The notes below the pieces were generated by a model. The model was not told where the DNA came from, did no database searches, and saw only the letters and a program-made list of their open reading frames with translations. The position numbers were made by a program, and so were the translations under genes. Of a DNA stretch of 64,000 nucleotides, positions 8,514 through 29,813 are shown piece after piece (the first letter of the stretch is position 1; each line of letters starts with the position of its first letter). Source of the stretch: Burkholderiales bacterium (GTDB lineage: Bacteria; Pseudomonadota; Gammaproteobacteria; Burkholderiales; SG8-39); the NCBI GenBank assembly GCA_035602335.1, contig DATNMK010000084.1, forward strand, positions 42,318 to 106,317. Direction: 5' to 3'.

Positions 8514-9049
8514 TGCAGCGGCCTGTCGTAGTGCAGGTCCGCCTTCATGTGACCGGTGAGCATGGCGATGCGTTTGATGAGCTCGGAAATTCCCTGCAGG
8601 CTGAGCAGCGCAAATCCGAGCGGGAGGAAAATCTTGATCGGCCAGCGGATCAAGCCGCCCGCATTGCCGGAGATCTCGCCTTCAACCCACGAGTTGTAAA
8701 ACACCGGCCACGACAGGTAGGTGAGGATGAGGGTCGCCGGCAGGAGGAACAGGACGCCGCCGAAGATGTCCACCCAGATCTGGCGCCGGGTCGAGATGTT
8801 GCTGTAGACGATGTCGACCCGCACGTGCTCGTTCCGCTTCAGCGTATAGGACGCCCCCAGCAGCACCAGGGCGCCGAACATGTACCACTGGATCTCGAGC
8901 CAGGCATTGGAGCTGATGCTGAAGGCGTAGCGCGAGAACGCGTTGCCGGCGCTGATGAGGCACGAGAGCAGCACCAGCCAGTCGGCGAGCACGCTCAAAC
9001 GCTCGTTCATCGCGTCTATCACGCGCGACAGCGCGAGCAGTGGTTTCAT
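8510..9049 (-). CDS. TRAP transporter small permease (DctQ-type)
   Basis: MKPLLALSRVIDAMNERLSVLADWLVLLSCLI..., about 4 TM segments. Stop overlaps the dctM-type start (ATGA). Start trimmed to 9049. Confidence 0.8.
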   Translation of the reverse strand: MKPLLALSRVIDAMNERLSVLADWLVLLSCLISAGNAFSRYAFSISSNAWLEIQWYMFGALVLLGASYTLKRNEHVRVDIVYSNISTRRQIWVDIFGGVLFLLPATLILTYLSWPVFYNSWVEGEISGNAGGLIRWPIKIFLPLGFALLSLQGISELIKRIAMLTGHMKADLHYDRPLQ

Positions 9050-18200: not shown

Positions 18201-20465
18201 GCTCGTCAGCACCCCGTTGGAGAAAACGTCGGTGCGCGCCTGTTGCATGTCTTCCTGAATGAGCTTGTGCTCTTTCGGCTGGCAGCTGCAAGTGACCGGG
18301 CCGCCCGGGCTGCCAATGGAGAAATTCACCGTGTTATTGCCCTGGCAAAGGACCTGTTCCGAATTGGACGAGATGGGAGTGACGGTGGTCGACGAAGAGC
18401 CCGATGCATCGAGCGTGCCGGTCAAGGGACGGTCCACCAGCGTGGACCCGCTCAGCGTGGCCGGCGAAGCGTCGAGGTTGCCGATCGTTTTCGCAGCAAG
18501 CGTCTGCGGCGGATAGGAGGGAAGGTTGTTCCAGTAACCGTCCGTCGTCAGCAGCGTGAAGTTGCGCTGGCAAGCCGCCTGGATCGGGTCATCGGTGGTC
18601 GGAATCCCCGAGGTAAGGCCGGTGTTGAGCTTGCCGGCATAAATCCATCCGGCGCGCGCCAGGGCTTCCTGCAGCGGCGTCGCGTTGCCTACCGTTTGCG
18701 TGTAGAACTTGTTGAAGAAGTTCGTCGCCTGCGTGGTGTCGAAGTCCTGGATGCGGAGATATTTGCTCGCCGCCACGCTACCCGAGTCCTGCGCGTGCAT
18801 GGCGATGAAGCCAAGGCGCAGCGAATTCGGCTTCGGCGGCGTGCCGGTCGGGTTGCCGATGAAAGCAAGAAAGGAAAGTCCGGCCGAGGTCTTCATCATC
18901 TGGATACGCGTGCGGTAATAGGTGTACCAGCGCGCGTAGTTGTTCATCTCCTCGGCGTAGGTGCAGGTAGGCGCACTGATGCAGTCGGCGCGATTCGCCC
19001 GGTTGCTGTAACTGCCGACCGAAGACTTGATGATGTCGCGCTTGAACCAGCCGTAGCGACCGTAGAGGTATTGCGTGATGCCGGCGGTTTCGTTGTACTT
19101 GGAACGGCAGCGGGCCGTTCCGGACGAGTCGCTTACCGCGCCGGGTGCGAGCGCTTGCGCCTGAGTCTGGCAGAAGCGGACATACGCCGGGAACGTGAAT
19201 CCCGCGGGCGGCGCCGCAGGCGGAATCACCTGCACGCAGTTGGTCAGGTTGGCATCGGAGCAGTATTCGACCGGCACGATGGCGAAGGCAATCGCCGGCC
19301 CGTTGTTCGAAGTGCCGACGTTGTACAGCCCGGTCCGGACCCACGTAAGCGTGCCGCCGCTAAGTGTGCCGCCGCTGGTAAAAGTGAATTGGTTAGCGCT
19401 GAGCACCGTAACTGCCTTACCCGTATCCGTTATCGCGGCCGCTGACTTGGCGGCGATTATGTCGTTAGTGACAAGTCCATGATTGGTACTGGTGACCGTG
19501 ACTAGAGCTCCGACCTGCGTGTAGGTCGCGGCTGTGTGCTTGCGGTAAGACCCATTCGTCGCCCCGAGGGTGCCGCTGCCCGAGGTATATGCGAAGGTAT
19601 TAGCGGTCGGAGCCGGGCTGGCAAGTACCGTAAACACGGTACCGTCGACGGTGCCGGTTCCAGTGACAAAGACGTTGTTCCCCGCGGCAACACCGTGCGC
19701 TTCTGTGGTTGTCACTGTTACCGTAGTTCCGCTGCGCGCAAAGCTGCCCATCGACATCATCTCCGGCAGACCGAAGACCGCCGTGCTGGCGTTGGCGGGG
19801 TTGGTGCGATAAGGGAACTGCCCCGCGGGCATGGCATTGCCAGCGCCGTTTGCCGGGTCGAACGCCGTGCCGGAGACGAGGTTGGCGCCTGCACTGTCTG
19901 CGCCGTTTCGCTTGCAAATGTTGTTGCTGTTGCAGTACTTCATGTCCGGGATCTGGGTGGCCAGATCCACGTTCGTCGCGCTCGCGCCGTACGGGCTGTG
20001 CGTATAAACGTCGTCTGCGACACTGGTGGTTGCGGCCGAGGCTCCGAGCGGCAGACCCGAAGGCGGGTTGATGAGCGGCTGGCCGTTGGGGCCGACGCCG
20101 GCACGGTAGTAGAAATTCGGGTCGTAGGCGACTCCGTTGAAGCCATTGGCCCCGCCGGCCGCGTACGGCGGATCGCCGGCCGAGCAGTCCGTGGGGTTGG
20201 CAGTGGTATTGTTCATGCACGGTTTGGACTGCCCAAGCGCCACGCCACCGGTTTGGGGGCTCACGTAATCGGGCATGAAGTCCCACGCCATGCTGCCCGA
20301 ATCGTCCAGGTCGAACAGCAGGTTCGGCAGGATGCTGGAGCCGCCGCTTGTTGCGAGCGGAACGGCGGAAATGTCGGTCACAGCGGCGAACGCCGTCTGG
20401 CTCACCATGCAACCGAGCACGCTATAGAGAACCAGGCGTTTGGACAGAGAGTTTTTGGGGCTCAT
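15243..20465 (-). CDS. pilY1: Type IV pilus tip adhesin / biogenesis factor PilY1 (PilC-like), 1740 aa
   Basis: Signal peptide MSPKNSLSKRLVLYSVLGCMVSQTAFA. vWA/MIDAS-like LFDLDDSGSMAW near the N-terminus. C-terminal third has beta-propeller-like PilY1 features (YVGANDGFLHAFD..., GGDQLGNVWRLDF). Last gene of the minor-pilin operon. Confidence 0.85.
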   Translation of the reverse strand: MSPKNSLSKRLVLYSVLGCMVSQTAFAAVTDISAVPLATSGGSSILPNLLFDLDDSGSMAWDFMPDYVSPQTGGVALGQSKPCMNNTTANPTDCSAGDPPYAAGGANGFNGVAYDPNFYYRAGVGPNGQPLINPPSGLPLGASAATTSVADDVYTHSPYGASATNVDLATQIPDMKYCNSNNICKRNGADSAGANLVSGTAFDPANGAGNAMPAGQFPYRTNPANASTAVFGLPEMMSMGSFARSGTTVTVTTTEAHGVAAGNNVFVTGTGTVDGTVFTVLASPAPTANTFAYTSGSGTLGATNGSYRKHTAATYTQVGALVTVTSTNHGLVTNDIIAAKSAAAITDTGKAVTVLSANQFTFTSGGTLSGGTLTWVRTGLYNVGTSNNGPAIAFAIVPVEYCSDANLTNCVQVIPPAAPPAGFTFPAYVRFCQTQAQALAPGAVSDSSGTARCRSKYNETAGITQYLYGRYGWFKRDIIKSSVGSYSNRANRADCISAPTCTYAEEMNNYARWYTYYRTRIQMMKTSAGLSFLAFIGNPTGTPPKPNSLRLGFIAMHAQDSGSVAASKYLRIQDFDTTQATNFFNKFYTQTVGNATPLQEALARAGWIYAGKLNTGLTSGIPTTDDPIQAACQRNFTLLTTDGYWNNLPSYPPQTLAAKTIGNLDASPATLSGSTLVDRPLTGTLDASGSSSTTVTPISSNSEQVLCQGNNTVNFSIGSPGGPVTCSCQPKEHKLIQEDMQQARTDVFSNGVLTSSTTATNPLVTTIAPGCVAANWTQQDTPQTVQEDRLCKRSGSNSVTFNDGTTKSCSPCSSNRYVIIRQTKTQTNTIVTADGVQTNNSTGGVTTQPYQYSTNGTTFSTTQPSGGACSSSSIAITLSPNPKTTNNTPVVNTNGSGTALTVWSPNPQTTTGGAVTSTFSPGGTASTVADVAMYFYQTRLRGGTDYNGDPTGPKFGPNTNPPNTVDLSTDSISVKTGAKDFLPYQHMVTFGIGLADGLMRFQPDYETATTGDFANIKNGTVGGCFWTAGNCNWPAPANNTNANLDDLWHAAVNGRGSYFQALNPDALRQGISTALTSLNATVAAASASATSSPNVTQTDNQIFSTTYETNTWSGKVFAQTIDPSTGNVNPTVQWQADLNLLSRVAASSDTRNILTLDDTGTGTKVKAFSWASLTATEQGFFGSKCTPLSTMTQCSLLTPAQLVTANDGSQLVGYLRGWQANEATVFRDRVVVDPITGVTTNTVLGDTITAKPVFVRNPINSYVDAVTPSYATFASGNANRAPRVYVGANDGFLHAFDGSNGDESWAYTPRFLMPGLYALADTGYSSQHRYFVDGSPETFDVYDTAATAWKTILIGGTAGGGRGYFALDITDPVNPKGLWEFCNDSTLCAINDADLGLTFGNPVVGKRSSDGKWVVVLTSGLNNVSPGTGIGYFYVLDAITGTVLNKISTGAGTVGTPSGLMKLSGFYDSPATDATFRYIYGGDQLGNVWRLDFGTSTGTCAAPGSGAAPCVAHIATLKDGAGRAQPISTRVVLTHIGTNRVLYIGTGRYLGNADLTDPGAASGIAWQQTLYGFKDKDVDYGSSLRTGATLVTQTLTKINATDRGISSNPVNWSTQDGWLVDFNPAADPTPGERVNLDPRLVLGTVKVTTNIPSAGGACAVGGSSKDYDFDFRTGSAIPTATGGVVGRSLGGTIAVGMAIVQLPSGAIKDIITGADTSKTSVDVQINTAGAGVKRFSYRER
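19374..19745 (-). repeat. Two tandem ~55-aa repeat modules inside PilY1 (aa ~241-364)
   Basis: TVTVTTTEAHGVAAGNNVFVTGTG..DGTVFTVLASPAPTANTFAYT versus LVTVTSTNHGLVTNDIIAAKSAA..TGKAVTVLSANQFTFT, aligned by eye in the translation. Confidence 0.5.
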
Positions 20466-20489
20466 GACGGTCTCCCTAAGCTTGCTCGT

Positions 20490-21134
20490 TCATTGGCTAC
20501 GAAGTAGCGTTTGCACGTAAGCGATCGAGGCGCGCGGGCCGACCGATCGCACCGTGATGCGGTAATGCGTTTGCGGCGGCGTGGTGAAGAAATTCGGCGC
20601 GCTCTGGTCGACGCCCTCGCCGCTGATCGCCGTGCTCGTGAGCGTCTGACCGCAAATATTCGTTACGCCGCCACAGGTGGCGTTCGGCGCGCAATTGGCG
20701 ACCGGGCACAGGCGGTGAATGACGTACGACACCGTATTTCTTCCGCAGTCCTGCCCAACGAGACCCATTGCGGGACACGTAAGCGGGACCGCAAAGGCGT
20801 TCAACCAGCTGGCGGAGTTGGTGTACCAGTCCGGTGCCTCGCCTGCGGGAACACTCGAAGAATAGCCATTGGCCGCGCTGTCGGTGTTGATTCCTGCCGT
20901 GGCGACAGTCGTGCCAAGCCATGTATAAGCACTCTGCACGCCTTGGTCAGCGGCATTGACCGCCGATTGCCGGAAACCAATGTTGCCGGCTACTAAGGTC
21001 GCGGTGTCGACCGAGCGCATCATGGCGACCGCGGCAAGCGTCATCGCGACCAGTACGATCAGCGAAATGAACAGCATCACTCCGCGCTGCTGGCGGCGCG
21101 ACGCGCTGCAGGGATGGAGCGCGGCAGGTGTCAT
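20490..21134 (-). CDS. pilX: Type IV pilus minor pilin/assembly protein PilX
   Basis: MTPAALHPCSASRRQQRGVMLFISLIVLVAMTLAAVAMMRSV (PilX N-terminal hydrophobic segment). Start trimmed to ATG 21134, 1 nt after the pilW stop. Confidence 0.75.
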   Translation of the reverse strand: MTPAALHPCSASRRQQRGVMLFISLIVLVAMTLAAVAMMRSVDTATLVAGNIGFRQSAVNAADQGVQSAYTWLGTTVATAGINTDSAANGYSSSVPAGEAPDWYTNSASWLNAFAVPLTCPAMGLVGQDCGRNTVSYVIHRLCPVANCAPNATCGGVTNICGQTLTSTAISGEGVDQSAPNFFTTPPQTHYRITVRSVGPRASIAYVQTLLRSQ

Positions 21135-21135
21135 A

Positions 21136-22347
21136 TCAGCTCGATTTCCAGATCCAATTGCGCAGCGGCACCGTGGTTTCGAACACTCGGTAGCGATAGC
21201 ACCGCCAGTTTGCGTCCGCTGACAGGTTGAAGGACCGGTTGGTCCCGGTGTCGCCTGACCAAGTAGGAAAGGCCGTGGTCGTATCGCAGGGCGCGCCGGC
21301 GCCCGCTGCGGGTTTCTCCGCCAGGGCGCTGCGCGCCACGACAGCAACCCGAATCGCGATGACCTGCGACCAGTTCGGCACCGCGGAAATGAAGCGATCG
21401 ACGATGCCGTCGCCTGCGGCGTACACCGTGTTGTAGGTCACCGAGCCATCGTTGACGCCGTCGTCCACGCCGTAGTCGGCGCGCATGTGGACGACGTTGT
21501 CCGCGATTGAATTTACCGCTGGCACGCCGGCGGAGATGACGAAGGCGTTGGAGACAGTGAGCGTGTTATTCGCCAGGGCGTAAGTGTTGTACACCGGCAC
21601 CGTGACGTTCTGCGAAGCCGCGAAGTTGATGCCATCGTTGAGATTGCCCAGGTTGAACAACCGCGTCACGTTGGCCGTATTAGCGCCGCCGTAGGTTACG
21701 CCCATCCCTCCCGCGGGATTGAACCGGGCAGCGACCGAAGCGCCGCCGGCGAGCGTGTAGGCTCCGGAGTCATGATTCACCTGGTTGCTCGGTGTCGCGG
21801 GAAGGGAGGTCACTTCCATGAAGACGCAGTTCTTCCCGCTCCCCGGCTCGAGCAGGAGCAGCAGGTCGCCGGCGCGGACGCCAAAGCGCGTCTGCACTGT
21901 GAGAGGCGAGGTCGCCGAAGTCATATTGGCGACCAGCGTGGTCGAATTTGCGATCTGGTTTTGCGAGCCATAAAGGACAGTAAGCTGGTCAGGGAGCGTC
22001 GGAGTGCCGCTCGGGGTGATCACCACCGGCGCAACAATCATGGGATTCCCGACAGGAGGGAAATTGGGGGTCGAGCGCGCCGAGTCGTAGCCGACAATAT
22101 TGCAGCCGGCATAGAGGGTGTCGTTGATCCCCATGCCGGCGTTGCGCAAGTCGTACTGCATGGCGTAGAGGGCGATGGCGCCGTTTTGCTGCGCGTCGCC
22201 GCCGCTGGTCGTAGTGCGCCGCACGCCCTCCGATGCTTCGAATATCTGAAAGATGATGATTACGCCGATCAGGCTGATCAACATGGCGACCATCAGCTCC
22301 ACCATGCTGAAGCCGGCGGCGGCGCTGCGTATAGTTATGGCGCGCAT
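21136..22347 (-). CDS. pilW: Type IV pilus minor pilin PilW
   Basis: MRAITIRSAAAGFSMVELMVAMLISLIGVIIIFQIF, a prepilin cleavage/methylation motif G|FSMVE. Start trimmed to 22347. Confidence 0.8.
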   Translation of the reverse strand: MRAITIRSAAAGFSMVELMVAMLISLIGVIIIFQIFEASEGVRRTTTSGGDAQQNGAIALYAMQYDLRNAGMGINDTLYAGCNIVGYDSARSTPNFPPVGNPMIVAPVVITPSGTPTLPDQLTVLYGSQNQIANSTTLVANMTSATSPLTVQTRFGVRAGDLLLLLEPGSGKNCVFMEVTSLPATPSNQVNHDSGAYTLAGGASVAARFNPAGGMGVTYGGANTANVTRLFNLGNLNDGINFAASQNVTVPVYNTYALANNTLTVSNAFVISAGVPAVNSIADNVVHMRADYGVDDGVNDGSVTYNTVYAAGDGIVDRFISAVPNWSQVIAIRVAVVARSALAEKPAAGAGAPCDTTTAFPTWSGDTGTNRSFNLSADANWRCYRYRVFETTVPLRNWIWKSS

Positions 22348-22349
22348 GA

Positions 22350-22796
22350 TCAGCTCGTGTAGACCGAAGCGATGAGTATGTAGTTGTGCGGCGGCAGCCC
22401 TTGGGAAGCTTCTTCCGGCAGCTGCCAGCGCACCTGGATCTGCACGGTTGCACCCGAAGCGCTCGCGCCGGTGATGGTGACAATTGGCGGCACCGTCGTT
22501 GCGGCGGGAAGCTTGTTTACCTGGGTGACCCAGTCTGTCAGCCGGGTCGGAACTGCGCCGCTGCCCGGATATGCATACGACGCGATGTTTCCGGCATCCG
22601 TCCACATCTGCGACAGCAGCCGGTTGGCAAGGAACGCCGCCTCCGTCCGGTACTTGGACTCTGTGACGTTCTTGATCGTAACGGCCTGCAAGCCGACGAC
22701 GGCCAGGATGCCGATCGAGAAGATCAGAATGGCGATGAGCGCTTCGAGGAGCATCACACCGTCTTCGCGCTTCGGCGCCTGAGGAGGAATTCGCAT
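22350..22796 (-). CDS. pilV: Type IV pilus minor pilin PilV
   Basis: MRIPPQAPKREDG|VMLLEALIAILIFSIGILAV prepilin-type N-terminus. Alternative ATG at 22817 (MLKNGAL...). Confidence 0.75.
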   Translation of the reverse strand: MRIPPQAPKREDGVMLLEALIAILIFSIGILAVVGLQAVTIKNVTESKYRTEAAFLANRLLSQMWTDAGNIASYAYPGSGAVPTRLTDWVTQVNKLPAATTVPPIVTITGASASGATVQIQVRWQLPEEASQGLPPHNYILIASVYTS

Positions 22797-22810
22797 GAGG
22801 GCTCCGTTTT

Positions 22811-23344
22811 TCAGCATGCCCGCGGGTCCGGTGCAACGACGATGGGATCGCACATCTTCAGGCTGCCACCGCCGGAGACGACTACTCTCAGACAGCGCAT
22901 CGGGCCGCCGGGCTGACAGCTGCCTCCGCCCGGGTTGCTGAAGTCGAACTGCGTCGCCGTGGCGGAGGCGTCGGGATTGGCGACGATGCTGCCTAAGGGC
23001 GAAAACGTTACCGTTGTCGCCGCAGCGGGCGTTATGGCTACTGCGGCATTTGGCGATCCTTCCTCGTGCGCGCGCGACTGGACCAGCACGCCCGTTCCGA
23101 CTTCGCTCACCGTCCAGCCCGTACCGGGTCCCGAGACGAACTGCACGAGGACGTTGCGGCGGATGGCGGCACCGCGCGCCGACTGCAGGCCGTTGAGGTT
23201 GGCCTCGCTCGCTGCCCGCAACTGCTGGTTCTGCAGCCATTCCGCGAAGGACGGCAGCGCCATCATCAGTATGATGCCGAGCACGGTGAGCGAGATCATG
23301 ACCTCGACCAAGGTAAAGCCGTGCTGCGCTCGACGCTTCAGCAT
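22811..23344 (-). CDS. fimT: GspH/FimT-family minor pilin
   Basis: MLKRRAQHG|FTLVEVMISLTVLGIILMMALPSFAEWLQNQQLRAASEANLNGLQSAR. Confidence 0.75.
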   Translation of the reverse strand: MLKRRAQHGFTLVEVMISLTVLGIILMMALPSFAEWLQNQQLRAASEANLNGLQSARGAAIRRNVLVQFVSGPGTGWTVSEVGTGVLVQSRAHEEGSPNAAVAITPAAATTVTFSPLGSIVANPDASATATQFDFSNPGGGSCQPGGPMRCLRVVVSGGGSLKMCDPIVVAPDPRAC

Positions 23345-23781
23345 GACCCGGACTTCTTCAGCACCCAGCAGGTCGTGGCCGGAAGGTTCCAGCCGGCCGG
23401 CACCGTCGCCGTAGTGCGTGCGTTTGCCTCGTTGATCTCAAAGCGAAAGCCGGCCATGCTTTGATCATCGCCGGCGATGCCGCCATCGGCGCGGATGATG
23501 TATTGCGTCGCCGTGAGCGTCGGACAGGAGACGGTGAAGTATTTGAGGCCTGCCGGCAGCGGCGCTACGGTGCCCGCTGCGCACGCGCCGATATAGGTTC
23601 GGCTGTCCTGGAAGTACTGCTCGACCTTGGTCCGCATCGCCAGCAAGCTCGACGTCGCCTCCTGGATCTTGCTGCGGGTGATGTAGTCGGTATAGGAAGG
23701 GACGGCAATGGCCGCGAGAATCGCCACTATCGCGACCGTGATCATCACTTCGATGAGGGTAAACCCCCTTGCGCTGCGCAT
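23338..23781 (-). CDS. pilE: PilE-like type IV pilin, first gene of the operon
   Basis: MRSARG|FTLIEVMITVAIVAILAAIAVPSYTDYITRSKIQEATSSL. GGGAGG SD upstream. Confidence 0.8.
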   Translation of the reverse strand: MRSARGFTLIEVMITVAIVAILAAIAVPSYTDYITRSKIQEATSSLLAMRTKVEQYFQDSRTYIGACAAGTVAPLPAGLKYFTVSCPTLTATQYIIRADGGIAGDDQSMAGFRFEINEANARTTATVPAGWNLPATTCWVLKKSGSC

Positions 23782-23935
23782 GAAGCCTCCCTTCTGGTAG
23801 TCGCCATGCTACGGATGCATGGTCTCAGCCGGCAAAACCCGGCGACAGGCGGCTGGAATCGCCGACTGGCGGCGCGGAGCAGCGCAACATACGTGATGTA
23901 CTTCACGACCCGCCGGGTTGCGGGAGGGCGTGTCG

Positions 23936-23941
23936 TATAAT
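23936..23941 (+). promoter_or_regulatory. Perfect TATAAT -10 hexamer upstream of the split tRNA-Thr (ancestral tRNA promoter?)
   Basis: gtcgTATAATgcg lies 25 nt upstream of the tRNA 5' end at 23966. No good -35 was found. Confidence 0.35.
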
Positions 23942-23965
23942 GCGCGGCTCGCGGGGCACCGGACC

Positions 23966-24005
23966 GCTGGTGTAGCTCAGCTGGTAGAGCAACTGATTCG
24001 TAATC
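23966..24005 (+). pseudogene. 5' half of a disrupted tRNA-Thr(CGU) gene
   Basis: GCTGGTG-TA-GCTC-AGCTGGTA-GAGC-A-ACTGA-TTCGTAA-TC, then unrelated sequence (CGCAGTCAACCCCCC). Confidence 0.85.
23995..24005 (+). repeat. Left copy of the 11-bp direct repeat GATTCGTAATC (island junction)
   Basis: Identical 11-mer at 28856-28866. Spans the anticodon loop of the split tRNA. Confidence 0.8.
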
Positions 24006-24045
24006 CGCAGTCAACCCCCCGTGCTTTTCAGCCAGTCCAACGAGG

Positions 24046-24074
24046 TTGCAGCGTTCGGCGGTGCGGCGGAAAAT
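24046..24074 (+). promoter_or_regulatory. Candidate sigma70 promoter for the island-borne tRNA-Thr
   Basis: TTGCAG-17 nt-GAAAAT. The -10 ends 12 nt before the tRNA 5' end at 24087. Confidence 0.35.
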
Positions 24075-24086
24075 CCCTTCGGAATT

Positions 24087-24162
24087 GCTGGCGTAGCTCA
24101 GTTGGTAGAGCAGTCGCTTCGTAAGCGTCAGGTCGCGTGTTCGAGTCACGCCGCCAGCACCA
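24087..24162 (+). tRNA. tRNA-Thr (anticodon CGU), complete, 76 nt with encoded CCA
   Basis: GCTGGCG-TA-GCTC-AGTTGGTA-GAGC-A-GTCGC-TTCGTAA-GCGTC-AGGTC-GCGTG-TTCGAGT-CACGC-CGCCAGC-ACCA. One U28-U42 mismatch in the anticodon stem. Confidence 0.9.
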
Positions 24163-24172
24163 AAACCGAACG

Positions 24173-24194
24173 TAGGTAACAGCCTAGGTAACAG
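24173..24194 (+). repeat. Tandem TAGGTAACAG-cc-TAGGTAACAG motif just inside the left island end
   Basis: Two exact 10-mers separated by 2 nt. A 9/10 copy (TAGGTAGCAG) lies 10 nt inside the right junction. Confidence 0.5.
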
Positions 24195-24230
24195 ATCAAA
24201 TTGAAGGCGCTCGCGGTACAGCGTCCGTCG

Positions 24231-25187
24231 TCAGCGCTTTATTGGGCCTCGTCCTAGGGCAGCCTCAATTCGGTTCTGGAGTCGCTTCGCCAGGTCGGCG
24301 TATTCGCCCGGTTTCCAGATAAGGAAGTTGTATTGCCGGGTGTCGAAGTGAACGTCTTTTAGCTGATCCTCGCGACACAGCCAGATCACGCGCAGGCCAA
24401 GGCCGAGCGCAAAGCCGGCTTCGAAGTACACGCCTCCGCGTTGCCCGGTGAAATCTGCGACCACGAACCGGCTGCGCCGGATCATGGCCACGATCTCATC
24501 GTCAATACGATTGACATGCTCATGTTGATCGATCCGCTTCGGCTCGTATCCTGCGGCGTGGATTGCCGGCTCGATTGCGTCAGTCCATAGCGGCCTCACG
24601 TCATCGGCAAACCACATCGCACAAAAGCCGATCGGGCTTTCGGGATTTCCTTCGCGCAATTCCTCGAGGAGCTCATGGCCGCGGGGGGTGACGCGACCGC
24701 CTATTAGGAAGGCCCCTCCACTAATAGCGGCACTGGTTTGGCCGTCAATTGCACCAATGGCGCCGAGTAAATAGTCGATCAAGAGATACTGGACTTCGTT
24801 TATAGACTCTGACCACGTTACGGCAATCCAGCCGGGGTCTGTTGTACCCACGTCTGGAAAGTGAAATTCGAATGTTTCGCCAGCCCTAGGATGTTGGCGC
24901 GCAAGCTCCTGGAGCAGCTTTGTAGCCCGCTCTGCAACGGGCGGGGTGCGCAGTTGCCACAACCTTTCTAGGTCGCGTGAATCTAGTTTGATGCCTTGGT
25001 TTTCTCGAATCCAAGCGCTGACGTTGGCGATGGCTCGAGGGTCAGCATTCGTAGCCTTAGCAACTGCCCCTGCTGTCCCGGTGAGACTGAATTTTCCGCA
25101 ACGGCGACAGGTGTAGGCCGTTGTATCTGGATGATCCGTGGATTGCATTCCATCGAATCCGCAAATAGGGCATGACAGGTCACTCAT
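24231..25187 (-). CDS. Island gene A: Zn-ribbon + central domain + C-terminal TIR/nucleoside-2-deoxyribosyltransferase-like domain (candidate effector)
   Basis: N-terminus CPICGFDG...CRRCG. C-terminus IGFCAMWFADDVRPLWTDAIEPAIHAAGYEPKRIDQ...RSRFVVADFTGQRGGVYFEAGFALGLGLRVIWL, the fviADlT..nVyyElGyA..lGk.vi pattern of the TIR/NDT Rossmannoid clan with a conserved Glu. Confidence 0.6.
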   Translation of the reverse strand: MSDLSCPICGFDGMQSTDHPDTTAYTCRRCGKFSLTGTAGAVAKATNADPRAIANVSAWIRENQGIKLDSRDLERLWQLRTPPVAERATKLLQELARQHPRAGETFEFHFPDVGTTDPGWIAVTWSESINEVQYLLIDYLLGAIGAIDGQTSAAISGGAFLIGGRVTPRGHELLEELREGNPESPIGFCAMWFADDVRPLWTDAIEPAIHAAGYEPKRIDQHEHVNRIDDEIVAMIRRSRFVVADFTGQRGGVYFEAGFALGLGLRVIWLCREDQLKDVHFDTRQYNFLIWKPGEYADLAKRLQNRIEAALGRGPIKR

Positions 25188-25237
25188 ACTGCGCAGCCGC
25201 TTTCATAGCCCACCATCCCTCCATCTTTGCTGTCTCA

Positions 25238-25726
25238 TCATTCCATGTAAGTAGCTACAAAAGCCTTGTATTCGTCCTCTGACTTACAAATGCGCTCATT
25301 CGCGGACGAGGGAGTCAGCTTGCAAGTTATCGGCGGTACCTCCCAGTATTTCTTAACCTTGTCCGCTATCCACATATATTCGGCGTACCCCCTCTGCTCG
25401 AACGCATCGAATAGGTACTTGGTGTTGGCAAGCGTGCCGGTGCCCATATCGGTGGTTTCCACAGTCATAAAGCATTTGTTCTGTTTCGCGCTGTAGTGAC
25501 TTTGGAGTGACGCGAAGATCTTGCTTCTCGGATCATTCAGCTTGTAACCCAACTGGCCAAATATCTTCTCTGCCTGTAGCGCACACTTTTGCTGCTGTTC
25601 TAGCCCCTCACGGGCAGCCTTGTCGTTTAGTTTCGAAGTTAGTTCGGCAATCTCACTACGCTGTGCATTCAGAAACCACGAAAGAACCAAGACGATCGCC
25701 GCCAAGATAGCAATAGAAGCCTTCAT
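25238..25726 (-). CDS. Island gene B: N-terminally anchored exported protein with coiled-coil and 4 Cys, unknown function
   Basis: MKASIAILAAIVLVLSWFLNAQ TM/signal anchor. Strong SD GGGGGGAGGGG. Start trimmed from the track ORF to ATG 25726. Confidence 0.55.
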   Translation of the reverse strand: MKASIAILAAIVLVLSWFLNAQRSEIAELTSKLNDKAAREGLEQQQKCALQAEKIFGQLGYKLNDPRSKIFASLQSHYSAKQNKCFMTVETTDMGTGTLANTKYLFDAFEQRGYAEYMWIADKVKKYWEVPPITCKLTPSSANERICKSEDEYKAFVATYME

Positions 25727-25883
25727 GCCCCTCCCCCCTTTTTCTACTGCCTTCGGCGCCATTCCTAAGGCGCCACCGGCTTCGGATCCGCCCATAGCCC
25801 GCGCACCTGCGGCCGTCGATATCGACTGCAATACTGATCCGCCGACGCCCCGACTCCTCCAAAGGGCCTCTCCTGTTTCGAAT

Positions 25884-26153
25884 TCACTTCCCTAGCATGA
25901 CTCCCAAGACTATAAAAATGATGAACCAGGCGAACAGCGAAAAGATTGCACCGCCGAAACTTTGTCCCGTAGAGCAATCCATTTCAAAAAACGTGGCGAT
26001 GATTGGGATCTCTTGTAGCGTCCCGACTATCAGGTTGGCGGGTAAGAGCCAAATTTGTTTGGCTATTAGGAATACGTCGGAGATAGTAAAAACCCCATCT
26101 CCATTCATATCGGCCGCGAAGTGGAACCGGCGGCAATACTCGTACATTGGCAT
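25884..26153 (-). CDS. Island gene C: 89-aa membrane protein with a canonical EF-hand Ca2+-binding loop
   Basis: DMNGDGVFTISD fits the DxNxDGxxTxxD pattern. It is followed by two hydrophobic segments (VFLIAKQIWLLPANLIVGTL and GGAIFSLFAWFIIFIVLGVMLG). GGGGAGA SD 6 nt upstream. Confidence 0.6.
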   Translation of the reverse strand: MPMYEYCRRFHFAADMNGDGVFTISDVFLIAKQIWLLPANLIVGTLQEIPIIATFFEMDCSTGQSFGGAIFSLFAWFIIFIVLGVMLGK

Positions 26154-26222
26154 GTAAGTCTCCCCGCATAAACGCTACGCCGCGAAACCGCTTCGTGCCC
26201 TTAGATCACTCGTTGCCCACTG

Positions 26223-26681
26223 CTACAACTTGAACCCTTCAGCACGCAGAACCTCAACGAATGATGCAACACGAATGCCGCGGGCCCGGCAAACGTTCGG
26301 AATCTTTGGGGTCTTCGCCTTGCCCATCGTTTCGTACGTGACAACGGGAACACCGCTGATCTCGGCGAGCGCGACAACAAATGGATCGGCCCCTGATCTA
26401 GTCGACTTTGGATCGATGAAACCAGCGTGCGCAATGATTATGTCCTTCGACTTCTGTAACAGCGCGCGGTCAGTGTCGACAAAGAAGTTGTCCAACGCCT
26501 TTGCCCACTTGCACAGGTTGTCACTCTGCCGTTCAAGCTCAATGCGAACATCGACTGGCGCCGCTATCGTGCCGCTTTCCGCCAACTCCTTTAGTTTGTC
26601 CCAAAGCGGTTCGAACATCTCTGGTGGATAGTGCCGGACCCAAGGTTCGATTAGCGCGCTGGTGTCAAAGCACCATCTCAC
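26223..26681 (-). CDS. Island gene D: DUF4411-family PIN-like nuclease-fold protein
   Basis: (GTG) RWCFDTSALIEPWVRHYPPEMFEPLWDKL...GADPFVVALAE...VVTYE...KIPNVCRARGIRV matches my recollection of the DUF4411 consensus. GGGAGG SD. GTGA overlap with gene E. Confidence 0.8.
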   Translation of the reverse strand: MRWCFDTSALIEPWVRHYPPEMFEPLWDKLKELAESGTIAAPVDVRIELERQSDNLCKWAKALDNFFVDTDRALLQKSKDIIIAHAGFIDPKSTRSGADPFVVALAEISGVPVVTYETMGKAKTPKIPNVCRARGIRVASFVEVLRAEGFKL

Positions 26682-27895
26682 GCCGCCTCCCGGTGCTTGA
26701 GCACGTCGACGATCTTGGGTAAATGGTCGATCTTCGTCCCTAGGATGCGCGACAACTCAGAACCGGTGATAACGGCCGAGTCATACGCATCAACGACAAG
26801 CCTAGTAAGAAACCGACCGTTCGCCAGGACGACGCGGCGAGGGAAACTTGCGAAGCCGGCGCTAGAGTCCCCTTCGTCGCCAGCGTGTTCCCGCCTATAT
26901 TCCTCCCGCATCCGCTGGTAGAACGCCTGCGAAGTTTTTCCGGCCATGAGTAGACGCCGAAGGATGGCCTCGCGGCTCGCCCAAAATGTTCTTCGCAGCG
27001 TCGCCAAGGTATCGGCACCCCATTCAGCAGCGCGAGCGTTTGCAACAGCAGGATGTTGCAGCAAATGATCGAAAGGAAGCAGGATCGCGCCAGCGACGTG
27101 ATTGCAATAGGTTTCGATTGACTGTTCCCTGTCACCGCGCGGTGCCTCGTCTCGCACGTCGCATAGGCTGCTTTCGGCGCGAGCAAGGTGCGCGAGTTCG
27201 TGCAACAGAGTGAATACCCTTCCAAGGGGCCGATCAGTGCTGTTTAGGATGACGACCGGCAGTGGGAAGAGTGCGAGCGAGCACCCGCGCATTTCGCTAA
27301 CTTCGACGCCACTAATCTGCATGACGAGGACGCCAAGCGACTCGACGGCGGCTTTCCATGCGTTCAAAGCGTCATAGTCGTTCGCCCATGCTCGGCGATC
27401 GTTCATCGTAATGCCGAGTTTTTGTGTCAGATGCTCGGCCATTGGTTCGGGCTGAAGCATTCCAGCCAACCCAAGGTCAAAGGCGGGGGGTTCCTCCTCC
27501 AACTGCGCGTAGATACCGAGCGCGGCGTCCCGTTTGGCTTCAGCCTCGCGGATACCGTTCGCAAGGTCACTACTCACGAGATGTTCCGTACTGAGTTCAA
27601 ACCTGCGGAAGTCGGCGGGTTGTTCCGTAGCAGCCGGTGGCGCTTCGAGGAAGAACACACCGATAGAGCGCTTGTAGATTTTCGCGAGCTGGCGCAACTG
27701 CGCCAGTGCAGGAACCTGCTCGCCGGCCTCCCAAGCACGGATTCTCGCCTCTGGTTTGTTCATTTTCTTGGCAGCGGCAGGCACGTCCAATCGCGACGTT
27801 TCCCGCGCCCATTTCAGCAGGTCGCGGCTAACCAAACCATCGAGCGATGGGCCCGCCATAGGATGAGCAGATAACCGTCTAAAGCGCCGTTTCAT
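26678..27895 (-). CDS. Island gene E: XRE-family HTH fused to ImmA/IrrE (M78, DUF955) Zn-metalloprotease
   Basis: HTH region LLKWARETSRLDVPAAAKKMNKPEARIRAWEAGEQVPALAQLRQLAKIY. HEXXH motif in FTLLHELAHLA. Alternative ATG at 27859. Confidence 0.85.
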   Translation of the reverse strand: MKRRFRRLSAHPMAGPSLDGLVSRDLLKWARETSRLDVPAAAKKMNKPEARIRAWEAGEQVPALAQLRQLAKIYKRSIGVFFLEAPPAATEQPADFRRFELSTEHLVSSDLANGIREAEAKRDAALGIYAQLEEEPPAFDLGLAGMLQPEPMAEHLTQKLGITMNDRRAWANDYDALNAWKAAVESLGVLVMQISGVEVSEMRGCSLALFPLPVVILNSTDRPLGRVFTLLHELAHLARAESSLCDVRDEAPRGDREQSIETYCNHVAGAILLPFDHLLQHPAVANARAAEWGADTLATLRRTFWASREAILRRLLMAGKTSQAFYQRMREEYRREHAGDEGDSSAGFASFPRRVVLANGRFLTRLVVDAYDSAVITGSELSRILGTKIDHLPKIVDVLKHREAA

Positions 27896-27939
27896 TGAAG
27901 GCTACACCATTTCCCGACCCGCCCGTTTCGCGCGGCCGA

Positions 27940-27969
27940 TGGACAATTCGCAACTATGCGCGGCATACT
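27940..27969 (+). promoter_or_regulatory. Candidate sigma70 promoter of gene F
   Basis: TGGACA-18 nt-CATACT. The -10 is the left arm of the SOS box. The predicted TSS is only about 8 nt before the ATG, giving a near-leaderless transcript with no SD. Confidence 0.4.
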
Positions 27970-27985
27970 GTTCAGATATACAGTA
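27966..27985. promoter_or_regulatory. LexA (SOS) box, CTGT-N8-ACAG type
   Basis: TACTGTTCAGATATACAGTA versus the E. coli-type consensus TACTGTATATATATACAGTA: both 6-nt arms are perfect, 17/20 overall. Part of the 8+8 inverted repeat CATACTGT..ACAGTATG, which ends in the gene F ATG. Confidence 0.7.
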
Positions 27986-28215
27986 TGACAAATTTAATGA
28001 TTCCTTTCGAGTGCCCGATATGCGGCTCGGACGGCTTTACCCAAGTTTCAGTTAGGGGGCGCGACGGCCGGACACGACTGACGCAAGCCTATGAATGCCG
28101 CGGCTGCAGCACCATGTTCCGCGAGCGCGAACGCTTCACTAAGCACCGCCCGCAGGTCATGGGCGCGGACGGCGTAGATTTGAAGCCGACGCTCGATAAG
28201 AAGTCCGCAAGGTAG
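27985..28215 (+). CDS. Island gene F: 76-aa Zn-ribbon protein, putatively SOS-regulated
   Basis: MTNLMIPFECPICGSDGFTQVSVRGRDGRTRLTQAYECRGCSTMF... The CxxC...CxxC ribbon is similar to the N-terminus of gene A. Start chosen at the ATG inside the SOS box. Confidence 0.55.
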   Translation: MTNLMIPFECPICGSDGFTQVSVRGRDGRTRLTQAYECRGCSTMFRERERFTKHRPQVMGADGVDLKPTLDKKSAR

Positions 28216-28297
28216 TTCGTGTTCGATACCACACAGACAATCCAGTCGAATGCTGTTACTTGGTACGCTGCCCGTACGACTTATTCGAAAGCAGACA

Positions 28298-28672
28298 ATG
28301 AGAAAGTCGATCGCCTGGGCGGCTATCGTCGCCCTTCTCGCCGGCTGTGTCACAACGGCGAAATTCGAAGACAAGCTCAACAGTTGGGTAGGACACAGCG
28401 AAGACGACTTGGTCCGATCGTGGGGGCCGCCTTCTGGCGTTTATGAAACCGCGAACAGCAAGTACCTAACGTACGCGCGTTCTGCTCAGGGCTACGTGCC
28501 AGGCGTTGCGCCTAGTTACCAAAGCTACGCAGTAGGCAACACGGTATATACGCGGCCTGTTGGAGGTTCTCCCGGGTTTGCGTATTCACAGCAGTGTAAT
28601 GCGACCTTTGAGCTTGTCGGTGGAGTAATTCGGTCATGGAGATGGGAAGGCAACGCGTGCAGATCAAACTAG
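28298..28672 (+). CDS. Island gene G: lipoprotein of unknown function
   Basis: MRKSIAWAAIVALLAG|C lipobox signal. 124 aa. Confidence 0.7.
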   Translation: MRKSIAWAAIVALLAGCVTTAKFEDKLNSWVGHSEDDLVRSWGPPSGVYETANSKYLTYARSAQGYVPGVAPSYQSYAVGNTVYTRPVGGSPGFAYSQQCNATFELVGGVIRSWRWEGNACRSN

Positions 28673-28835
28673 CTCTGCTCCCGCATGCCTAGTTCTCGAA
28701 AATATCTATTGGCTCGGCCGCGCTCGGTTCAATAACCGTAGCATCAATCACGCGCATCTCGCGGGCGGCGCGCATGTTCGCTTCGGCCAGTGCATTGAAC
28801 CGCAAAGGGAAGCCGAATGTTCGCCTGTGATACCT

Positions 28836-28845
28836 TAGGTAGCAG
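28836..28845 (+). repeat. TAGGTAGCAG, a 9/10 copy of the left-end motif near the right island junction
   Basis: Compared by eye with 24173-24194. Confidence 0.35.
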
Positions 28846-28855
28846 CAGGGTAAGA

Positions 28856-28866
28856 GATTCGTAATC
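28856..28866 (+). repeat. Right copy of the 11-bp direct repeat GATTCGTAATC
   Basis: Identical to 23995-24005. Confidence 0.8.
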
Positions 28867-28902
28867 AGTAGGTCGCCCGTTCGAGTCGGGCCACCAGCAC
28901 CA
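28856..28902 (+). pseudogene. 3' half of the disrupted tRNA-Thr(CGU) gene
   Basis: (GA)TTCGTAA-TCAGT-AGGTC-GCCCG-TTCGAGT-CGGGC-CACCAGC-ACCA. The acceptor and anticodon-stem strands are exact complements of the 5' half at 23966. Confidence 0.85.
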
Positions 28903-28963
28903 TCAATTACGAGGCTGCGCTCCTCGAGCCAAGCGACGCAGCTAAGGAAAACTCAGGGGCGTA

Positions 28964-29305
28964 TCAGCTGCAGCCGCGAAGCTGCTCGCGCAAGGCTTCA
29001 AGCCGCTGCTGACGAACTTCATCGTTCGCGCCGGCATCGCGACGGCTGGGGGTTAAGCGGGAATATTCCTGCATGTCCCGCGCGCACTGGCGTTGGAGCT
29101 CCTGCGTAGTCCTCGCTGCCGCGCGAGGTGATGCGGATTCCATTGGCGCCGCGCCGCCGCGCTGGATTTTGATTATTTCGCTCTTGCAGTTTGGTAGCGG
29201 CTTGTCCGAATAGTGCGTCACGCCGCGCTGATCCACGCACTTATAAGTTTGAGCGTACGCCGGAGCGCAAATGACAAGGGCGACGATTAGGGCGGTTTGT
29301 TTCAT
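28964..29305 (-). CDS. DUF4124-domain periplasmic protein
   Basis: MKQTALIVALVICAPAYAQTYKCVDQRGVTHYSDKPLP. Start trimmed to 29305. Confidence 0.7.
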   Translation of the reverse strand: MKQTALIVALVICAPAYAQTYKCVDQRGVTHYSDKPLPNCKSEIIKIQRGGAAPMESASPRAAARTTQELQRQCARDMQEYSRLTPSRRDAGANDEVRQQRLEALREQLRGCS

Positions 29306-29416
29306 GGCTTGTTCGGTACAGTTGGCGATTGTACTCTCAGTCGGTAAGGGCGCAGATGCGTGCACACGCGCACTAGTCGGCGTTAATTGATCTAGACTTG
29401 CCGACATCGGACTTCG

Positions 29417-29797
29417 ATGGCTGCCAACATCCTCGTCGTTGACGACGACGAAAGCATCCGTGGACTGCTTCGGCTACATCTCAGCGCGGCCGGGTACGAC
29501 GTGCACGTCGCGGAGGACGCGATCATGGCGGGCTACATGGTGCTGCGCAGCCCGCCGGACCTGATCATTTCGGACGTCCACATGCCCCACATGGACGGCT
29601 TCGAGTTCATCGCCGCTCTAAAGGCGGACAAGTCGCTGCCGTACATCCCGGTGATCTTCCTCACCTCGATGGAGGAAGGCGACGACCGCGGCAAGGAGCT
29701 CGGCGCGGTCGGCTATCTCACCAAGCCGGTGCGCGCAGACCGGCTGTTATCGCTGGTGGCGAAGCACGTGCCCGACGGCACCCACCCGATCGGCTAG
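29417..29797 (+). CDS. Single-domain CheY-like response regulator
   Basis: ILVVDDDESIRGLL...DLIISDVHMPHMDGFEF...LTKP. Confidence 0.85.
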   Translation: MAANILVVDDDESIRGLLRLHLSAAGYDVHVAEDAIMAGYMVLRSPPDLIISDVHMPHMDGFEFIAALKADKSLPYIPVIFLTSMEEGDDRGKELGAVGYLTKPVRADRLLSLVAKHVPDGTHPIG

Positions 29798-29813
29798 CGG
29801 GGTCTGGAAGAGG

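Follow-up and report, generated by a model that had tools for sequence, protein, structure and literature searches.

An integrase-less element splits a tRNA-Thr(CGU) gene at its anticodon loop in a Burkholderiales soil bacterium and carries a complete tRNA-Thr(CGU) gene of its own

How does a block of foreign DNA come to lie in the middle of a bacterial tRNA gene, and what becomes of the function of that gene? This question is raised by a 64,000-nucleotide stretch of a Burkholderiales genome (GenBank assembly GCA_035602335.1, contig DATNMK010000084.1; hereafter the window, whose numbering is used throughout), in which a tRNA-Thr(CGU) gene is split in its anticodon loop by an element that occupies positions 24006-28866. 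We refer to the split host gene as tRNA-X and to a complete tRNA-Thr(CGU) gene borne by the element as tRNA-E. The 5' half of tRNA-X ends in …ACTGATTCGTAATC, and the sequence that follows is unrelated to a tRNA, with nothing that restores the gene at this junction; the segment at the far end of the element opens with GATTCGTAATCAGT… and continues with the T-arm, the acceptor strand and CCA. The halves are separated by 4,850 bp, and each carries a copy of the 11-mer GATTCGTAATC, which comprises the 7-nt anticodon loop TTCGTAA and 2 bp of stem on each side. This common core is found exactly twice in the window (23995-24005 and 28856-28866; 0.007 occurrences expected from base composition), and the direct repeat stops at 11 bp, with no extension on either side. 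The bacterial attachment site (attB) of the element, with its core in the anticodon loop, overlaps the host tRNA gene.

Pairing between the halves is perfect, with 12 of 12 inter-half pairs in the acceptor and anticodon stems of the Watson-Crick type, and when 24006-28866 was removed in silico ARAGORN called a 76-nt tRNA-Thr(cgt) with a perfect cloverleaf. In contrast to the joined sequence, the left and right junctions (attL and attR) contain no tRNA according to either ARAGORN or the Rfam tRNA model. A first-pass annotation, made from the letters of the window, had claimed that the gene is split in its anticodon loop, that an 11-bp repeat marks the crossover, that a tRNA finder would recognize the joined halves, and that the left junction rebuilds no tRNA; all of these claims hold, and the last applies to the right junction as well. 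The intervening DNA is also AT-richer, as that annotation had noted, with a G+C content of 0.56 compared with 0.65 for the window.

Both states of the locus are present in public metagenome contigs, which we retrieved by exact-protein look-ups of the flanking genes. A 1,024-bp contig (L004, from sample JGI 3300001593) corresponds to window positions 23915-24005 fused to 28856-29799, with 100% identity, a single copy of the 11-mer and an intact tRNA-Thr(cgt) (72.5 bits with the Rfam tRNA model). The same soil sample contains both occupied junctions, the left one in L009 (window 23117-26095, 99.97% identity) and the right one in L012 (window 28324-29633, 100% identity). Besides the window, four independent public assemblies contain the occupied left junction, and three of the four also contain the right one. 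The intact gene in L004, like that in 19 related species, has exactly the sequence of the tRNA-X 5' half at its 5' end.

Because all of these data are metagenomic, we considered whether a chimeric join, or a mis-assembled empty site, could have produced the two states through faulty assembly or binning. Two assemblies, ENA ERZ28654895 and Logan ERR1700694, do break at the left junction or within 5 bp of it, with contigs ending at 24005 and 24000 and contig overlaps of 55 bp (start of L001, end of L006) and 25 bp (L002, L007). The recovery of each junction from several independent assemblies, the identity of the empty-site tRNA with that of 19 related species, and the length of the repeat, which at 11 bp is too short to mislead de Bruijn assemblers, make such an artefact extremely unlikely, and the breaks are consistent with a graph branch arising because occupied and empty alleles occur together in those samples as well. 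Since the repeat is too short for artefactual joins, a natural population is polymorphic for the presence of this insertion, whose limits are precise and set by the repeat. The first-pass annotation had predicted an unoccupied site with an intact tRNA and had tied its fate to finding such a site and a polymorphism of this kind; both exist.

The annotation also implied that tRNA function is lost at this locus, but a complete tRNA-Thr(CGU) gene, tRNA-E, lies 81 bp inside attL, co-oriented with the host gene and behind its promoter (Table 1). It is the single tRNA that ARAGORN calls in the unmodified window, and it is about 80% identical to tRNA-X, with compensatory differences in three stems. 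tRNA-E therefore appears to be a functional replacement of the split gene, such that the function would be replaced rather than lost. A working tRNA-Thr(CGU) matters to the host because ACG represents 43% of its threonine codons, and the host would depend on tRNA-E if, as we assume, tRNA-X was its sole tRNA-Thr(CGU) copy. The TATAAT upstream of tRNA-X is likely the -10 box of the host tRNA-Thr promoter and, after the insertion, is likely the only obvious promoter upstream of tRNA-E. A TATAAT occupies the equivalent position upstream of the native tRNA in a sister species (L030), and no terminator was detected anywhere in 23780-24300.

An exact-match scan of the viral contig database IMG/VR with tRNA-E returned one 44-kb viral contig, L095. 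This contig carries a tRNA with 100% identity to tRNA-E over 77 nt, preceded at a distance of 59 nt by GGATTCGTAATCC and followed directly by a gene encoding a 306-aa tyrosine integrase (HDLRHT…LGH…Y; Pfam 1.6e-16) and, beyond it, an open reading frame (ORF) encoding an Xis-like helix-turn-helix (HTH) protein. Because the sequence upstream of its 11-mer is no tRNA half, L095 represents the unintegrated form, containing the phage attachment site (attP). A motif scan and the contexts of integrase homologues revealed further members (L104, L124/L125, L140 and L141) with integrases 73-81% identical to that of L095. All five soil phage contigs are ~44 kb in size and in the unintegrated form, and all share one layout: arm repeats, the core GATTCGTAA(TC), a spacer of 48-62 nt, a complete tRNA-Thr(CGU), and the tyrosine integrase gene. 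The arm repeats, (G/T)GTGCA(A/G), are present in three copies at about -111, -100 and -90 from the core, with one or two extra copies in the spacer of four of the five phages (+40, +51); in L095 they are located at 8420-8450 and 8567-8595, and they occupy the same places in L104, L124, L140 and L141. By their placement they are probably arm-type integrase sites. Neighbouring phage genes include holin, lysis, DUF5675 and P22-like genes.

The tRNAs carried by these phages have four distinct sequences. The 11-mer is absent from all of them, and the anticodon stems have the form GC-TTCGTAA-GC or CA-TTCGTAA-TG. The lack of the 11-mer is consistent with avoidance of self-recombination. The combination of an anticodon-loop mimic with a whole replacement tRNA is thus a conserved module and not an accident of one locus. 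The five contigs are ordinary new members of the tRNA-dependent lysogeny group described below. The element in the window resembles them further in the start of its spacer, CnnAGTCA, which is common to the attP sites of L095 and L104; its spacer holds only degenerate GTGCA-type repeats (GGTTGCAG, GGTGCGG). A family probe, GATTCGTAATCCNNAGTCA, gave 27 metagenome matches, of which L104 was the only true relative and the rest were chance matches, and IMG/VR searches with single-protein and alignment-based integrase queries returned the contig of L095 itself plus one fragment, with no integrated, integrase-bearing copy. The layout is not shared by more distant integrases (P0143 and P0142, about 49% identity). 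In phages with P0142-type integrases (L136:3529-3793, L138 and L139), a tRNA-Cys/Glu/Gly cluster lies just upstream of the integrase gene and no tRNA lies beyond it.

These data suggest that the element at 24006-28866 was, most probably, inserted by tyrosine integrase-mediated site-specific recombination in the disrupt-and-replace strategy known as tRNA-dependent lysogeny. In this scheme, a tyrosine integrase would exchange strands within the 7-nt anticodon loop, at the 11-bp core, which is far too short to rebuild the gene, leaving tRNA-X as dead halves at attL and attR, and the element would compensate with its own complete tRNA-Thr(CGU). Because the core is asymmetric (TTCGTAA), insertion would be directional, and tRNA-E would always land behind the host promoter and the 5' half. 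The host promoter could then drive transcription of a precursor composed of the 5' half, the spacer and tRNA-E, from which RNase P would free tRNA-E.

A short direct repeat that bounds a discrete insertion could alternatively be the target-site duplication of a DNA transposon. However, no transposase was found with Pfam, PADLOC or PHROG, the ends have no terminal inverted repeats (13 of 30 positions identical compared with a null value of 12.5 +/- 1.8), and the repeat is centred exactly on the anticodon loop. Moreover, related elements carry the same 9-11-mer beside a tRNA before integration, and since the core pre-exists in the element, the direct repeat arises from reciprocal recombination with no target duplication. 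We find transposition very hard to credit. It is also highly improbable that a classical island targeted the tRNA gene and simply did not restore it, leaving the host without tRNA-Thr(CGU). Although such a failure would account for the lack of a tRNA at both junctions, it does not account for the complete gene 81 bp inside attL, for the identity of that gene with the native tRNA of sister species L030 (75 of 76 positions) and with the L095 phage tRNA (100%), or for the layout common to the five phage relatives.

The first-pass annotation pointed to tRNA-targeting tyrosine integrases and missed that the element is not self-sufficient in this respect. Searches with Pfam, PADLOC and PHROG detected no recombinase, integrase, excisionase, transposase or phage structural gene in the element, and no integrase or integrase remnant was found anywhere in the window by tblastn with the P4-type integrases of relatives' islands or by family searches; the other long ORFs of the window are host genes with high G+C at third codon positions (GC3), and the recognized ones have housekeeping or pilus functions. 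The integrase must therefore have been supplied in trans or since lost. What the element does possess is a motif, TAGGTARCAG, that occurs three times in the window, at the ends of the element only, and not once in 1.26 Mb of other loci (0.12 expected). By this distribution, the three copies are good candidates for arm-type protein-binding sites. The element and the L095 phages have the same core and tRNA and different arms and cargo, and because the candidate arm motif differs, the element is not a simple deletion derivative of an L095-type prophage.

We lean, with limited confidence, toward the element now being a stranded, integrase-less derivative, one that the host could hardly shed other than by precise excision, given that tRNA-E is presumably its only tRNA-Thr(CGU). 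On the unlikely side, in our estimate, is an active, non-autonomous hitchhiker that depends for both integration and excision on enzymes (integrase and excisionase) provided in trans by a co-resident phage or island recognizing the same core, in which case the empty sites in the population would be excision products or cells not yet colonized. Activity of this kind would fit the perfection of both core copies, the confinement of the repeated motif to both ends (as expected of arm sites), the presence of occupied and empty alleles with 100% identical flanks in one sample, the compact and apparently intact ORFs, the lack of an integrase remnant, and the abundance, in this habitat and lineage, of integrases that use this core or crossover point. 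Against it, no helper with TAGGTARCAG sites was found in IMG/VR or in the 1.26 Mb of loci, the element was not seen at other loci or in other hosts by exact-protein look-ups, and a recent insertion now fixed in one strain would equally give both alleles. Excision would create the attP junction GGGTAAGA-GATTCGTAATC-CGCAGTCA (synthetic attP, …CAGCAGGGTAAGA-GATTCGTAATC-CGCAGTCAACCCC…), and none was found in the contig collections, which lack even the known junction contigs.

Some of these observations, together with others, also weigh against insertion by a disrupt-and-replace mechanism followed by stranding. No integrase cognate to the element was found, and the phages have GTGCA repeats where the element has TAGGTARCAG as its candidate arm motif. 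Scans of IMG/VR with the arm-motif patterns TAGGTAACAGNNTAGGTAACAG and TAGGTARCAG-N10-GATTCGTAA gave no matches and no helper. Exact-protein look-ups placed the element at this one locus only, and an attL/attP junction probe, GATTCGTAATCCGCAGTCAACC, had no match in metagenome and viral contig collections that do not contain even the known contigs L008 and L009. Finally, the expression of tRNA-E and its reliance on the host promoter are presumed from sequence, and a strict sigma-70 consensus scan of 23780-24300 identified no full site for the host tRNA or in the spacer.

Is the insertion typical of its site? To place it among related species, we scanned species-representative genomes with the neighbouring CoaX protein and obtained 80 syntenic loci (74-88% identity), all from metagenome-assembled genomes of uncultured soil or groundwater Burkholderiales/Betaproteobacteria. 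Most of these loci have one tRNA-Thr(cgt) between a minor-pilin cluster and the response-regulator/coaX side, and tRNA-X is the commonest allele, identical in 19 of them. An orphan 3' half is present near coaX in at least nine species (L016, L020, L026, L027, L057, L065, L069, L073 and L079); it starts exactly at TTCGTAA in eight of the nine and, in L079, a few bases later and with more divergence. A regenerated full tRNA lies 2-7 kb from the orphan half in five of the nine (L026, L057, L065, L069 and L079), and P4-type integrases (Arm-DNA-bind_3 plus Phage_integrase) adjoin the orphan half in two (L057:12006-13316 and L020:5820-7133). The anticodon loop of tRNA-Thr(CGU) is thus an integration hot spot of classical islands in related species, which bears out the suggestion of the first-pass annotation that the loop is a sublocation used by tyrosine integrases. 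An orphan 5' half was found in none of the 80 loci, making the configuration in the window unusual even at this busy site, and the interior of the element has no DNA or protein match in any of them. Among the islands themselves, the C-terminus of the L057 integrase appears replaced and the L065 island retains only an N-terminal integrase remnant; L065, L069 and L079 contain islets of about 2 kb with a large secreted-protein-like ORF, in which a PPC domain was confirmed in L065 only.

The same loci bear on the origin of tRNA-E. E-type anticodon arms do not contain the 11-mer core, and the probable source of tRNA-E is therefore a lineage beyond the reach of these integrases. Sister species L030 has a native tRNA-Thr(CGU) (L030:11914-11988), in the syntenic position between pilE and the response-regulator gene, that matches tRNA-E at 75 of 76 positions. 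A TATAAT of its own precedes it by 10 nt, and the locus shows no remnant of X halves. E-like anticodon arms are also present in L064, L084 and L092, and X-type alleles span the whole 74-88% range of CoaX identity, such that the allele pattern is phylogenetically patchy. This patchiness could reflect escape from integration or past phage-mediated replacement, either of which fits.

The strategy that we propose has a well-described precedent. In tRNA-dependent lysogeny, reported by Guerrero-Bustamante and Hatfull (mBio 2024, PMC10865867) for actinobacteriophages including Fionnbharth, Cluster L phages and Gaia, a tyrosine integrase acts at a common core of about 10 bp (8-17 bp) with no tRNA reconstruction, and viable lysogens need a phage tRNA of the same isotype; this was demonstrated for tRNA-Lys-TTT, Ile2-CAT and Leu-CAA. 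With the Lj965 prophage of Lactobacillus johnsonii as a cited case, the authors considered that other systems might use the strategy too (PMC10865867). The element in the window shares three features with these systems (attB in a host tRNA gene, a short core of 11 bp that rebuilds no tRNA, and a carried tRNA with the same anticodon) and lacks two, having no integrase of its own and not being a temperate phage; it appears to work like tRNA-dependent lysogeny without being a full member. Its phage relatives, like the actinobacteriophages, have a tyrosine integrase and repeats at fixed positions flanking the attP core that look like arm-type sites. What differs is the target, tRNA-Thr(CGU), and the host of the element, a Burkholderiales (betaproteobacterial) soil lineage. 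The architecture differs as well: the tRNA lies 48-81 nt from the attP core and is co-oriented with it, whereas Fionnbharth has its tRNA in another part of the genome, with a demonstrated promoter for that gene (PMC10865867).

Two further cases, both bioinformatic observations, are similar. A prophage tRNA-Leu(UAG) of Sinorhizobium meliloti replaces an inactivated host tRNA (PMC11476347), and there and in Lj965, as here, integration inactivates a tRNA gene and the element supplies a cognate copy that resembles tRNAs of other taxa. Those elements, unlike the one in the window, are complete or incomplete prophages with integrases, and they involve other tRNAs and lineages; we found no empty/occupied polymorphism or attP-form relatives reported for either in the accessible text. 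Among the papers searched that use the term tRNA-dependent lysogeny, no title or abstract mentions Betaproteobacteria, tRNA-Thr(CGU) or integrase-less versions.

Classical tRNA-integrating genomic islands, as compiled in the Islander database (PMC4383910), carry a tRNA 3' half such that the gene is rebuilt at one junction. In the window, by contrast, identity ends after 11 bp and a whole tRNA is supplied, and two Islander-type features are missing, there being no tRNA restored at a junction and no integrase gene near one end. The crossover sublocation and chemistry are nonetheless those of classical islands, which in at least nine related species have inserted at the same site. The sublocation classes of tRNA integration that Williams reportedly defined in 2002 include crossover in the anticodon loop, and phage P22 integrates at thrW, also a tRNA-Thr(CGU) gene.

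Integrase-less elements flanked by attachment sites are known in other settings. The cis-mobilizable elements (CIMEs) of streptococcal integrative and conjugative elements (ICEs) are of this kind, and integrative mobile elements exploiting Xer (IMEX) use XerCD encoded elsewhere. Like them, the element in the window lies between recombination sites, encodes no recombinase, and would be movable only in trans or in cis with a helper; unlike them, its site is a tRNA anticodon loop rather than dif or an ICE attachment site, it carries a tRNA on which the host may depend, and TAGGTARCAG scans of IMG/VR and the fetched loci found no helper.

The disrupt-and-replace mechanism is already known; the lineage, the phage family, the tighter architecture and the integrase-less derivative are new. 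These findings extend tRNA-dependent lysogeny to an uncultured soil phage family and a betaproteobacterial host with a natural occupied/empty polymorphism, and provide a natural case in support of the suggestion, made by the authors of the 2024 study (PMC10865867), that the strategy is widespread. With the replacement tRNA located inside the attP module, where it would land behind the host tRNA promoter, integration would amount to an in-place gene swap, and a replacement tRNA could outlive the integrase and the rest of the element, leaving a small foreign islet that the host may be unable to lose safely. Phages could plausibly replace "core" tRNA genes in this way, and tRNA anticodon stems could come to diverge in sequence and so evade integration. 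Island finders that rely on a regenerated tRNA and a displaced fragment will miss such elements or mis-assign their bounds. More speculatively, and we regard this as doubtful, the element may exemplify a class of minimal "tRNA-swap" islets that lack an integrase, combine an anticodon-loop core and arm sites with a complete replacement tRNA and small defence cargo, and are inserted and excised in trans by phage integrases recognizing the same core. Such islets would be stabilized, as imprecise excision would remove what is presumably the only tRNA-Thr(CGU), and the resulting xenologous tRNA replacement could explain the patchy X and E alleles in sister species.

Table 1. Positions in the window of the split host tRNA gene, the recombination sites and the genes of the inserted element
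Feature	Position	Strand	Basis or remark
TATAAT, likely -10 box of the host tRNA-Thr promoter	23936-23941	+	sequence read
tRNA-X 5' half, ending in the core; with the left end of the element, attL	23966-24005	+	sequence read
Left copy of the 11-bp common core, GATTCGTAATC	23995-24005	+	sequence scan
81-bp spacer from core to tRNA-E	24006-24086	+	no promoter or terminator detected
Complete tRNA-Thr(CGU), tRNA-E	24087-24162	+	ARAGORN; Rfam tRNA model, 68.1 bits
Two tandem TAGGTAACAG repeats (24173-24182, 24185-24194), candidate arm-type integrase-binding sites, P' side	24173-24194	+	motif scan
305-aa protein, N-terminal zinc ribbon plus TIR-like/nucleoside 2-deoxyribosyltransferase-like domain	24231-25148	-	Pfam, PADLOC
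185-aa predicted membrane or secreted protein	25238-25795	-	gene call in L002; no family matches (Pfam, PADLOC, PHROG)
89-aa small hydrophobic (membrane) protein	25884-26153	-	ORF/gene call
152-aa DUF4411 (PIN-like) protein, 4-bp overlap with upstream partner	26223-26681	-	Pfam PF14367, 1.2e-33
393-aa HTH plus IrrE/M78 metallopeptidase, RmrA/CapP-like regulator-protease	26678-27859	-	Pfam PF06114 plus HTH domains
76-aa zinc-ribbon protein	27985-28215	+	gene call; weak homologue in phage contig L124
140-aa ORF, lipoprotein-like signal (…LLAGC), phrog_3716	28250-28672	+	uncalled as a gene in public assemblies
TAGGTAGCAG, third copy of the candidate arm-type motif, 10 bp from the core, P side	28836-28845	+	motif scan
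Right core (28856-28866) and tRNA-X 3' half through CCA; with the right end of the element, attR	28856-28902	+	sequence read

The interior of the element contains seven ORFs on both strands (Table 1), with GC3 values of about 0.6 compared with 0.85-0.9 in host genes. A group I or II tRNA intron, or a naturally split tRNA gene, was considered and rejected: Rfam detects no intron or other RNA family besides tRNA in 23700-29200, the ORFs lie on both strands, and a direct repeat flanks the interval. Phage structural, lysis and replication genes were not found in the 4.86-kb element, and the cargo is defence-like. A BLAST search of the whole element against plasmids and phages returned generic tRNA matches only.

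The 305-aa protein, with a PADLOC match to a TIR effector (1.3e-13) and a match to Pfam PF05014 (2.7e-05) that falls below the curated cut-off, is a predicted defence-type effector. Because its closest homologues occur in unrelated contexts, it represents shuffling cargo. The 393-aa protein matches the PADLOC models RmrA (3.6e-12) and capP (4.5e-10) and phrog_2439. A 53-bp stretch at the start of the gene for the 76-aa zinc-ribbon protein (27979-28031) is 96% identical to L094:1540-1592. L094 is a metagenome contig that is otherwise unrelated, although it encodes a homologue of the 305-aa TIR-like protein with 81% identity. The stretch may serve a travelling cargo module as a junction, either regulatory or for recombination, that both contigs share.

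Directly upstream of the tRNA, window positions 15243-23781 contain a type IV pilus minor-pilin cluster, with genes encoding PilY1 (1,740 aa), PilX/W/V-like, GspH/FimT-like and PilE/ComP-like proteins. Its G+C content is about 0.61-0.63, and both G+C and GC3 are below those of the surrounding housekeeping genes. We take this arrangement of a minor-pilin cluster beside the tRNA gene to resemble the pilin-tRNA-Thr neighbourhood of Pseudomonas, a variable region.

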